A DNA stretch of 64,000 nucleotides from Escherichia coli (GTDB lineage: Bacteria > Pseudomonadota > Gammaproteobacteria > Enterobacterales > Enterobacteriaceae). The position numbers are program-made. The stretch lies in NCBI RefSeq assembly GCF_030013205.1, contig NZ_CP122648.1; one strand, given 5' to 3'. The number at the start of each line of letters is the position of its first letter. The stretch's first letter is position 1. Positions 33,001 through 36,000 of the stretch are shown here, in pieces.

Positions 33001-36000
33001 ATGACGGAACCCAGCTGGAACTGGAAACCATGATTGCGCGCATGGGCCAGATAGCTCAACGCATCGACGCCTTCATCAAGCGAGCCAGTCGCTACTTCGT
33101 GCAGCAGCGGTTTCCACAGGTGGCTGTGGTTACGATCGACCAGCGTAATTTTGGCTTTTTTCTTGCGTCCCAGCTTATGCCCCAGCTGTGTTGCCATTTC
33201 CAGCCCACCAGCACCGCCGCCGACAATCACAATTTTTTTCAATGGCGTAGTCAACGTGACCCCCTTAAATTTATTAACCAATTGTTAATTAATGGTTATT
33301 AACATAGCTCTTAATTAACAACAGGTTACAGCAATGAAAATGTTCTTCGCTAATGAGAATAACATGAATGGTGCATTGGTCATACCAAAATTGATGTTAA
33401 TCAAGTTTTGTTGCTGAAAAGATAGGCGACTTTACCGGGTGAGATCAAAAAACAGAGTTTGTTGTTTATTATTTGAGCGAATTTGTGAGAGTGATATAGA
33501 GTGAGGTGTGTATGGAGGGCGTTCGGTAGGCCTGATAAGAAGCGCATCAGGCATTGATGCTCGACTGTCGGATGCGGCGTGAACGCCTTATCCGACTTAC
33601 AGAATTCGGAGCGCATCAGGTACCGGCAAGGTTACCTGATGCGACGAGGGCATTTACCCGAGGGTTTTGAACGCTTTAATGCGCTGCAAATGCGGGGAGA
33701 TATTCTTGAATTTGTGCGTCTGCTCTTCGTCCCAGACAATCTCGTAATAATGATGCAGCTCTTCAGATGTCCGCTGGCTGTTAAGCGCTTCATCATTACG
33801 CGACAAAATCACCAGGCAACGATCGCGATTCTTCTCACGGAAGTTGGTCACACACTTAGTGGCAATATCGGCATACTCTTCCGGGCGATCAATCTTGCCT
33901 TCCATGTTCTCATAAGGGAACAAATTAGGGTTGAAGATCACCTGGCGGATATCGCAAAGAAAACCAATCCGTTCCGCCCAGTATCCGCCCAGACCAACGC
34001 CGCAAATCAGCGGACGCTCGTCGACGTTCAGTTGCAACATTTTGTCCACTTCTTTGAGCAGATGCTGCATATCATGTTTCGGATGCCGCGTACTGTAGCT
34101 TATCAAGCGTACATCCGGGTCAATAAACTGCAATTGTAAGACTTTCTCGTGGTTACCCGGACTGTTAGAGTCAAAACCGTGTAAATAGATAATCATCGCT
34201 TCCTCACATAAGCCAGGGTTAGTGACCTGCTTTCTCTTCCTGCCAGCGTTCATGTAACTGATTCAGACGGGTGCTGATCGCTTTCCAGCGAGCCGAGTCC
34301 ATCAGTTCCTGTCGCGAAAATGAACCTTTATGATACAAACGTGTAACACGTTCTGCCTTGATCGGTGACAGATTATCTAACACGCTGACGGCCCCTTTAC
34401 GATTATTGCAGACCAGGATCATATCGCAACCCGCGTCCAGTGATGCCTGCCCGCGTTCGGCATAACTGCCCATAATCGCGGCTCCTTCCATCGATAAATC
34501 GTCAGAGAAAATCACGCCATCAAAACCCAGTTCCTGACGCAAAACGGTTTTCAGCCAATAGGGAGAACCGCTCGCCGGACGCGGATCGACATCACTGTAG
34601 ATCACATGCGCAGGCATAATGGCGTCGAGTTTATTTTCGCGGATTAAGGAACTGAAGACCGACATATCTTTAGCGCGAATCTCCGCTTGCGGACGTGGGT
34701 CACACGGTGTTTCTTTGTGTGAGTCTGCCGTTACTGCACCGTGTCCTGGGAAGTGTTTCCCGGTAGTTTTCATTCCGGCTTCATGCATACCATCAATAAA
34801 CCGGCTGGCAATTGCCAGGGCTTTTTCGGGATCGGCATGATAAGAACGCTCGCCAATCGCCGCGCTGATATGCCCGACGTCCAGCACTGGCGCAAAGCTG
34901 ATATCAATATCCATAGCAATCATTTCGCTGGCCATCAACCAACCTGCCTCTTGCGCCAGTTTTCCGCCTTCTTCCATTCCCAACAGCGCAGCAAATGATT
35001 GTGCCGCTGGCAAGCGGGTAAAACCTTCACGAAAACGCTGCACACGTCCACCTTCCTGATCAACCGCCACCACCAGATGATTGCGCGAAGCTGCGCGGAT
35101 CTGGCGCACCAGTTCACGTAACTGGGCAGGATCATGATAGTTACGCGTAAAGAGAATCAGCCCTCCCACCAGCGGATGCGCCAGTATTTCACGCTCTTCC
35201 GCGTCCAGTTCGTAACCTTCGACATCCAACATTACTGGACCCACACTGCTCTCCTTATTGTTTTATTAATAGCTGCCGCCAGGTGTCATCGGCCAGCCTG
35301 ATAAATTGTTGATCGCCGGTTTGTCGCCAACGGTACTCAAACCACCCTGCTTTGAGCATCAGCAGCCAGGGAAACCATCGCCTGACCTGACGCCATAATT
35401 GCGCCGGATAAATCTTCGCGCGAGTGGCATAGTCATTGACCAATTGCCGGTGCTGGTCAGTATTTTCCACCCACACCGCCGCCAGTTCCAGCGCGATATC
35501 ACCATCTCCTGCATACTCCCAGTCGATGAGTTTTAACCCTGACGCGCTATGCACTAAATTTCCGGCGTGGACATCCATATGCAATGGACTTAAGCGTAAA
35601 GGCCGTGGTTCCCGCGCTTTGCGCAGACGTTTTAACCTTCGCAGCCAACCCACTGTCCGCCGCGCCGGATCGCTTTGCTGCCAGTACAGTTCCAGTAACG
35701 GCAACAGCGTTATTCGCCAGCCAAAACGCGGTTGTTGATGTAGATAATACAGCAAGCCTGCCAGTTCGTTGGTATCCGGCAAATACGTTTTTACCTCGCC
35801 GGGCAGATAGTCGACCACCATCCAGTCACGGAGATATAAATGCGGCTTCGGTGCAATGCATGCGGGTAGTTGTGATAAAGCCCGATACTGGCGCAAGAAC
35901 GCGGACTGCGGCGCATCAGGATCGTGCGGCTGACGCACAACAAAACGCTGGCCCTGATGTTCAATGAGAAAACTCCCGCCACTAAGCCCACTATTAAACG

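Follow-up and report, generated by a model that had tools for sequence, protein, structure and literature searches.

The repetitive extragenic palindromes (REPs) of Escherichia coli are built from three types of unit, Y, Z1 and Z2, of 35, 29 and 37 nt respectively, in which a 5′ GTAG is essential and an AA/GC bulge is conserved (PMC8266576); both GTAG and the bulge are required by the transposase TnpA-REP (PMC8266576, PMC3479197). Such units combine into bacterial interspersed mosaic elements (BIMEs), of which one close for comparison here is REP325, the yjdM–yjdN BIME, in which Z2 and Y units alternate (12 in all). REP325 acts as a Rho-dependent terminator of partial efficiency and also stabilises the mRNA upstream of it (bioRxiv 10.64898/2026.03.23.713779), and its Z2–Y pair is represented in Rfam as naRNA4 (RF02564). 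A curated list of the K-12 REPs, with EcoCyc numbering, is given in supplementary Table 15 of the same preprint. Here we compare with these systems the REP elements of a 64,000-nucleotide stretch of an E. coli genome (contig NZ_CP122648.1 of assembly GCF_030013205.1; below, the window), above all a cluster of palindromes at 33528–33650 in the spacer between ycfP and ndh. This cluster is most likely an array of hairpins in the 3′ untranslated region (UTR) of ycfP that reduces transcriptional read-through into ndh and shields the 3′ end of ycfP; termination has been demonstrated in K-12, and the rest we infer.

Positions 2899–64000 of the window align in reverse with K-12 MG1655 1196425–1135100 at 97.6–98.5% identity. 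The segment 32800–34400 is identical (100%) to strain K_EC180, and occurs in 5,425 of 5,426 complete E. coli genomes. Spacers were assigned from the K-12 annotation together with mapping of stop codons. To avoid circularity, REP units were judged against references from outside the window, namely the Y (35 nt) and Z2 (37 nt) units of K-12 REP325 and the 32-mer crystallised with TnpA-REP (PMC3479197), by semi-global alignment with the best of 40 dinucleotide shuffles as the threshold. This alignment replaced a regular-expression scan with two substitutions, which returned nothing but noise (45 loci, mainly genic).

The ycfP–ndh cluster

The cluster (site 4) lies between tandem genes on the minus strand, in a spacer where the window strain differs from K-12 at 5 of 181 positions. 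Two of its palindromes are REPs, and these two alone correspond to the curated K-12 element REP102 (ycfP>ndh; K-12 1165740–1165814, window 33525–33599). The first, 4a (33526–33553, plus strand), is a Z2 REP that keeps GTAG, has lost 8 bp internally from its upper stem and loop, and folds at −10.4 kcal/mol. Because three E. coli strains and E. albertii carry a Z2-like version that is 8 nt longer, 4a as found in the window and in K-12 is an internally deleted Z2 and not a Z1. It matches its reference at 25 of 29 positions. The second, 4b (33566–33602, minus strand), is a Y REP with the canonical hairpin of a 7-bp stem, a 2×2 bulge and a 4-bp stem, in which GTAG is replaced by GTAA (GTGG in K-12) and the lower stem has undergone compensatory C>T and G>A changes; it is identical to Y at 31 of 35 positions (score 54/70) and folds at −18.9 kcal/mol (z = −5.4).

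Like the units of REP325, 4a and 4b form a head-to-head Z2–Y pair, which covers model positions 1–77 of naRNA4 and gives the best match of the window to it (33529–33597, full model, 56.6 bits, E = 8e-9, or 2e-7 when the whole window is scanned). Units of the window match the REP325 sequences at 31–36 of 35–37 positions, and this cluster too is situated in a tandem-gene 3′ UTR with involvement of Rho. The differences are that there is one pair and not six, that 4a is 8 nt short in its upper stem, that 4b lacks GTAG, and that there is an extra half-REP palindrome, which we designate 4c.

Palindrome 4c (33611–33647) has the form CGCATCAGGTA-CCGGCAAGGT-TACCTGATGCG, two Z-type REP head arms lying head-to-head across an S-like linker. 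It is situated 10 nt past the ycfP stop codon (33654–33656, minus strand) and folds at −21.9 kcal/mol (z = −4.4). Neither of the REP detectors applied to the window (reference alignment with shuffles, naRNA4 scan) finds it, it lies outside the curated REP102 in K-12 as well, and it is present as one copy per genome in 5425 of 5426 genomes. As judged from these comparisons, 4c is not a REP unit, but we think it likely that it is what remains of the junction between the two REPs of a second pair, since decayed. In both arms the sequence is that of a REP head, CGCATCAGG(t)A and T(a)CCTGATGCG(ACG), and the linker CCGGCAAGGT resembles the S linker of REP325, GTCGGCACTGT. The same head-linker-head layout recurs at the genuine 4a–4b junction and at the 5a–5b junction of site 5, described below, and the head-to-head junction pattern has six strand-counted matches against a shuffle mean of 0.15. 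Furthermore, 4c continues the alternating orientation of the adjoining BIME. In strain MLI106K3 a natural 69-bp deletion has fused the left arms of 4a and 4c via their common CGCATCAGG, which shows the left arm of 4c to be homologous to a REP 3′ arm.

The cluster is old, since the same cluster is present in E. albertii. When species-representative genomes were scanned for the exact pattern, 4c was found only in E. albertii, apart from a chance match in Streptomyces; the E. coli representative was also missed, so that absence elsewhere is weak evidence.

REP elements at six loci

The initial annotation placed REP/BIME clusters in five intergenic regions of the window and described them as ordinary E. 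coli BIMEs. All five are found where it put them, including the 40-nt string that it quoted, which lies at 33608–33647, although the count should be six, as a hairpin at 12222–12246 had been overlooked. Its three units at 33528–33650 are reduced to two, 4a and 4b, the third being 4c, a real near-perfect palindrome that should not be counted as a REP unit. Its first site is indeed a curated REP, although it is a degenerate hairpin that fails formal scans. The description as ordinary BIMEs holds, given the formal alignment of sites 2–5 to REP references (the comparison it had named as able to refute it), the presence of a canonical unit at 40 or more places per genome, and the curation of all the loci in K-12. 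We consider it very probable that the six sites belong to the E. coli REP/BIME family, as ordinary members or in decayed form, and are orthologues of K-12 REP101–REP106. These elements are already known, and their termination data in K-12 are published. The mapped coordinates of REP101–REP104 and REP106 agree nearly to the base with sites 5, 4, 3, 2 and 1 respectively.

Several lines of evidence support membership in the family. The motif GCCKGATG occurs 21 times in the window against 4.95 expected, a count reached by none of 100 shuffles, and the exact paired lower-stem pattern GCCKGAT...ATCMGGC occurs at five places, every one within sites 2–5. Alignment to REP325 Y and Z2 and to the crystallised REP rises above the shuffles only at 18871, 31850, 31938, 33566 and 53139, corresponding to units 2a, 3a, 3b, 4b and 5b. 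A permissive scan of the whole window with naRNA4 gives matches at sites 2–5 only: besides site 4, these score 42.7 bits at site 5, 34.4 at site 2, and 31.4 and 28.4 at site 3. As all of them, the best at 56.6 bits included, lie below the gathering threshold of 59.5 bits, they count as homologous REP pairs and not as naRNA4 genes. Every genome has at least 40 places matching 3a, a canonical Z2 unit, and for the site 4 query megablast gives a median of 5 places per genome. Neighbouring units are inverted with short linkers between them, 2a(−)/2b(+), 3a(−)/3b(+), 4a(+)/4b(−) and 5a/5b(−), and the RNA folds of all units range from −10 to −26 kcal/mol (z = −2.4 to −6.0). At all six loci placement is extragenic and 3′, between tandem (purB>phoP, ndh>ycfJ, ycfP>ndh) or convergent (ycfZ/cobB, roxA/pepT, yceF/rluC) genes.

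The features that TnpA-REP requires are preserved in some of the units. The AA/GC bulge is present in 2b, 3a and 4b, approximate in 2a and 5b, and absent from site 1, the window allele of 3b, 4a, 4c, 5a and the 12222 hairpin. GTAG is kept in only three of the 11 units, 2b, 3a and 4a, and is replaced by GCAG at site 1, GTGG in 2a, GTCCAGG in 3b, GTAA in 4b and GTTG in 5b, and has no counterpart in 4c or 5a. The only units with both GTAG and the bulge are 2b and 3a. Because one or other of these required features has been lost, most units can no longer be moved by TnpA-REP and are fossils, kept or tolerated as RNA and DNA hairpins.

Site 2 (18871–18966) lies between the convergent genes ycfZ and cobB and is the equivalent of REP104 (K-12 1180355–1180450), comprising two units and a linker. 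Unit 2a (18870–18906, minus strand), 28 nt past the ycfZ stop codon, is a Y-type REP with GTGG for GTAG and one lower-stem mismatch; it is identical to REP325 Y at 33 of 35 positions, scores 62/70 against a shuffle maximum of 33, and folds at −18.5 kcal/mol. Unit 2b (18938–18967, plus strand), 13 nt past the cobB stop codon (18980–18982, minus strand), is a canonical Z1 REP with GTAG (GCAG in K-12) and the bulge, and matches its reference at 28 of 29 positions. Between them is an L motif (18907–18937) of the BIME-1 kind. We assign site 2 to BIME-1 (Y-L-Z1) because its Z1-L-Y arrangement aligns end to end with independent BIME-1 (RIP/RIB) copies at mog–satP and obg–dacB, the L core ATTGAATTTG included. 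It differs in that its L motif is 2 nt shorter and has several substitutions, and in the GTGG and the lower-stem mismatch of its Y unit. The canonical L motif family occupies a median of 30 places per genome by BLAST. The linker of site 2 itself gives one place per genome, where a diverged motif of 36 nt is below BLAST sensitivity in the 28-Gb database.

The L motif contains ATTCAATTAATTG at 18916–18928, one mismatch away from the consensus WATCAANNNNTTR of integration host factor (IHF) and insignificant alone, and site 2 probably holds a candidate IHF site. Across the window, matches to WATCAANNNNTTR with at most one mismatch number 84 against 52 expected, and none of 100 shuffles reaches 84; this excess may reflect AT-rich intergenic composition and not binding sites. 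The adjoining 3′ end of cobB (18960–18985, compared with K-12 1180338–1180360) has a 1-nt indel that shifts the stop codon. In most strains cobB is 822 nt long, and in the window it stops 13 nt before the Z1 REP, whereas in K-12 and PEC389 it is 840 nt long and its frame runs about 5 nt into the REP. In the O157:H7 strain F8952 (L005:10815–10995; window about 17100–18990) ymfA and ycfZ are gone and potD adjoins cobB; the deletion ends at the tail of the site 2 Z1 unit, which alone survives, Y and L being lost, and a prophage is inserted beside potC.

Site 3 (31851–31938) lies between the tandem, minus-strand genes ndh and ycfJ and is the equivalent of REP103 (K-12 1167403–1167432). Unit 3a (31850–31887, minus strand) is a canonical Z2 REP with GTAG and the bulge, identical to REP325 Z2 at 36 of 37 positions (score 67/74) and folding at −23.4 kcal/mol; it is present in E. 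albertii. The window strain has this second unit intact, whereas in K-12 it has decayed to a remnant 17 nt shorter. Tail-to-tail with it is 3b (31901–31938, plus strand), the direct counterpart of REP103, about 12 nt past the ndh stop codon (31950–31952, minus strand). This is a Y-derived hairpin lacking GTAG, in which the bulge has closed into a 12-bp stem; it matches Y at 30 of 35 positions (score 44/70, above the shuffle maximum) and folds at −25.7 kcal/mol. In other strains the bulge is canonical, GATAAGGCG...GCCGCATC. The linker between 3a and 3b (31888–31900; L015:3820–3842) exists as two diverged haplotypes: that of K-12, …GCGCTGTTCCTCAAGG, is like E. albertii, and that of the window, …GTACCATTTGTCCAGG, is unlike it despite the ancestral Z2, which suggests old recombination or conversion at the locus.

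Site 5 (53098–53183), between the convergent genes yceF and rluC, is the equivalent of REP101 (K-12 1145929–1146003). Its unit 5a (53098–53127), part of REP101, is a perfect palindrome of 11 bp that has no bulge and whose head arms are of the Y type. It lies 8 nt past the yceF stop codon (53088–53090) and folds at −22.1 kcal/mol. Unit 5b (53139–53175, minus strand), 27 nt past the rluC stop codon (53202–53204, minus strand), is a hybrid REP with a Z-type lower stem, a Y-type upper stem and GTTG for GTAG; it matches Y at 28 of 35 positions (score 42/70, above the shuffle maximum). It is 5a and 5b together that give the naRNA4 match of 42.7 bits. The K-12 orthologue of 5b is listed as a mapped bidirectional terminator (bioRxiv 10.64898/2026.03.23.713779, supplement).

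The two remaining loci are hairpins that pass no formal REP scan, whether by reference alignment with shuffles or by naRNA4. Site 1 (8722–8744; hairpin 8718–8750, minus strand), in the spacer of the tandem genes purB and phoP, is a solitary degenerate Y-like hairpin with GCAG for GTAG and no bulge, and is the equivalent of REP106 (K-12 1190581–1190603). It lies 13 nt past the purB stop codon (8706–8708), upstream of phoP, and is identical to Y at 25 of 35 positions in a gapped alignment. It folds at −20.8 kcal/mol (z = −4.5), is unchanged in nine of nine genomes, and is terminator-like in a simple scan; in K-12 a Rho-binding (rut, for Rho utilization) peak overlaps REP106 (bioRxiv 10.64898/2026.03.23.713779, supplement). 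The 12222 hairpin (12222–12246), equivalent to REP105 (K-12 1187084–1187107), consists of two REP head arms that make up a perfect 11-bp palindrome, GGATGCGGCAT-CAC-ATGCCGCATCC, with CTTTTCG after it. It fills the 48-nt spacer between the convergent genes roxA and pepT, has a U-rich tail and is also terminator-like in a simple scan, and the REP105 hairpin is a mapped bidirectional terminator in K-12 (bioRxiv 10.64898/2026.03.23.713779, supplement). This spacer (window 12190–12290) is 145 nt long in strains EC-7215 and O8:H28 BMH-17-0027 (L007:41940–42115; L010:4095–4270), in which a Y REP and an inverted REP with a long-loop upper stem stand in place of the palindrome, a presence/absence BIME polymorphism.

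Across the 5,426 genomes the arrangement of these loci is largely fixed. Site 3 is dimorphic, with an intact Z2 in about 71% of records and the K-12-type remnant in about 29%; this remnant is the derived state, because E. albertii has Z2. The long allele of 4a, with the 8-bp indel, makes up about one fifth of the ranked sample, the 69-bp deletion at site 4 is rare, an 11-nt deletion in 5b is characteristic of the O157:H7 lineage and occurs in about 6% of genomes, and the linker of site 2 is undetectable in about 10% of genomes. The expected variation of copy number and arrangement among strains is only partly borne out, being limited to these few alleles at sites 2–5 and little beyond them, and the suggestion that the loci could help to place the strain is correct insofar as the Z2/remnant dimorphism and the small deletions are usable, albeit weak, markers. 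In practical terms, the equivalents of REP101–REP106 can now be annotated in the window with corrected unit boundaries. The broader significance is slight, since no non-coding repeat is commoner in E. coli than the REPs and all six copies are curated in K-12.

Proposed role and alternative explanations

At all six loci a hairpin starts 8–15 nt past a stop codon, the distances being 13 nt for purB, 8 nt for pepT, 15 nt for roxA, 13 nt for cobB, about 12 nt for ndh, 10 nt for ycfP and 8 nt for yceF. According to the summary in PMC12306157 of Liang et al. (2015), REPs less than 16 nt from a stop codon can stall terminating ribosomes and lower expression. In the ycfP–ndh spacer of K-12, a ycfP-sense rut peak (1165684–1166064) and a bicyclomycin-sensitive transcript (1165699–1166036) both overlap REP102, and REP101, 103, 104, 105 and 106 have similar entries (bioRxiv 10.64898/2026.03.23.713779, supplement). 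We propose that transcription of ycfP would place three consecutive stable hairpins (4c, 4b and 4a on the minus strand) in its 3′ UTR. These hairpins would form a partial, Rho-assisted barrier to read-through that insulates ndh, and would block 3′→5′ exonucleases, protecting the ycfP 3′ end; 4c, situated less than 16 nt past the stop codon, may in addition slow terminating ribosomes and lower the output of YcfP. In comparison with REP-type Rho-independent or bidirectional terminators, the 12222 hairpin and 5b correspond to mapped K-12 examples, the former with a U tail, whereas 4c and the other units have no U tract, and termination at them is more likely to be Rho-dependent.

A number of points weigh against this proposal. 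The near-invariant arms of 4c give no covariation in support of an RNA structure among 16 sequences, and an intrinsic-terminator scan of the cluster found no site at either 4c or 4b, its one weak result being an alternative hairpin that overlaps 4a. The evidence for termination comes from K-12, by way of a preprint supplementary table, and not from the window strain. Stalling of ribosomes at ycfP is argued by analogy and may not apply, 4c not being a canonical REP. The role as a stabiliser at these loci is unproven, because the preprint finds that the effects of REPs depend on context and that genes with REPs show no overall increase in half-life (bioRxiv 10.64898/2026.03.23.713779). The long helix of 4c was also considered as a target of RNase III and this was rejected, as the published site is far from the REPs: the in vitro-verified RNase III site in the ndh 5′ UTR is at K-12 1166043 (window about 33296), 42 nt upstream of the ndh ATG (PMC5371410), about 230 nt from the REP cluster, which lies further upstream.

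Other origins for the palindromes also need to be weighed. It is unlikely, in our judgement, that 4c is not REP-derived and evolved independently as a ycfP 3′ stem-loop or as a palindromic protein-binding site with 11-bp inverted repeats 10 bp apart, notwithstanding its single copy per genome, its position outside REP102 and its being missed by all REP detectors. Conservation also favours such an origin, as 4c is more conserved than the true REPs beside it: among 15 E. coli genomes and E. albertii, 1 of 22 arm columns is variable in 4c, compared with 7 of 37 columns in 4b, 6 of 28 in 4a and 18 of 40 in the upstream spacer, which is compatible with constraint on 4c. However, the REP heads in both arms, the REP325-like linker, the layout shared with the 4a–4b and 5a–5b junctions, the alternating orientation and the deletion in MLI106K3 all argue for the remains of a REP pair. 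That the palindromes in general arose by chance as GC-rich inverted repeats, or are simply intrinsic terminators unrelated to REPs, has a practically negligible probability; site 1 and the 12222 hairpin would fit, being terminator-like and failing the formal scans, but both carry REP head arms and are curated as REP106 and REP105, and for sites 2–5 this explanation is refuted by alignments that beat every shuffle against independent references and by the dispersal of the canonical unit. If on the other hand the copies were currently mobile, as REPINs moved by TnpA-REP (RayT), the differences from K-12 would represent recent transposition, as the Z2 unit that is intact in the window and not in K-12, and the extra REP pair in the pepT–roxA spacer of two strains, might suggest. 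We regard this as very improbable: the Z2 of site 3 in E. albertii makes the K-12 state a loss and not an empty site, the loci are fixed across some 5,400 genomes with the focal cluster common to E. albertii, GTAG, indispensable to TnpA-REP (PMC8266576), remains in so few units, and the annotation of the corresponding K-12 region contains no TnpA-REP gene.

There is also the question of whether the hairpins act as RNA at all. IHF binds BIME-1 and gyrase binds BIME-2, and site 2 has the Z1-L-Y architecture of BIME-1 with a ATTCAANNNNTTG core that is found in independent L motifs. The primary role could be at the level of DNA, in which case IHF (at site 2), DNA gyrase (at Y/Z2 pairs) or HU would bind, with consequences for supercoiling or chromosome domains, and any effects on RNA would be incidental. 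We find this rather doubtful, as the match to the IHF consensus carries no significance of its own, and as the strict 3′-end placement and stop-codon proximity at six loci fit action at the RNA level better. For REP325, moreover, there is no measurable chromosome compaction and there are no REP–REP contacts, and local 3′-UTR roles are favoured (bioRxiv 10.64898/2026.03.23.713779).

The shapes of the hairpins raise a further possibility. Bulge-less, “perfected” hairpins account for five of six stop-proximal units and for none or one of five distal ones (Fisher p = 0.013–0.067, n = 11, a sample too small without a genome-wide test). Those that are stop-proximal, without bulge or GTAG, and with a continuous stem of 10–12 bp are site 1, the 12222 hairpin, 3b in its window allele, 4c and 5a, and the canonical bulge is kept by units that lie farther from the stop codon. 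We raise only as a speculation, with the odds against it, that E. coli repeatedly turns decaying REPs into fixed, single-copy 3′-end hairpins, selected for RNA stability or for blocking ribosomes or exonucleases and not for recognition by a transposase. Under this speculation 4c would be the extreme case, a junction of two REPs that is conserved throughout the species and common to E. albertii. If true genome-wide, it would make a modest point about the recycling of decaying mobile repeats into 3′-UTR structures.

Other loci in the window

Two further differences from K-12 concern regions away from the REPs. Compared with K-12 and eight other strains, the gene fhuE (37788–39739, plus strand), which encodes the ferric-coprogen receptor, is 229 bp short, the missing stretch lying between direct repeats of 10 bp, GAAAACACGC (38094–38103). 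The deletion splits the gene into open reading frames of 173 and 523 amino acids, and fhuE is probably a pseudogene in the window strain. Positions 1–2898 of the window have no alignment to K-12, where the 3′ end of icd carries the e14 prophage, and a match to the small RNA STnc490 (Rfam, 146 bits) is found there at 2765–2888 on the minus strand.

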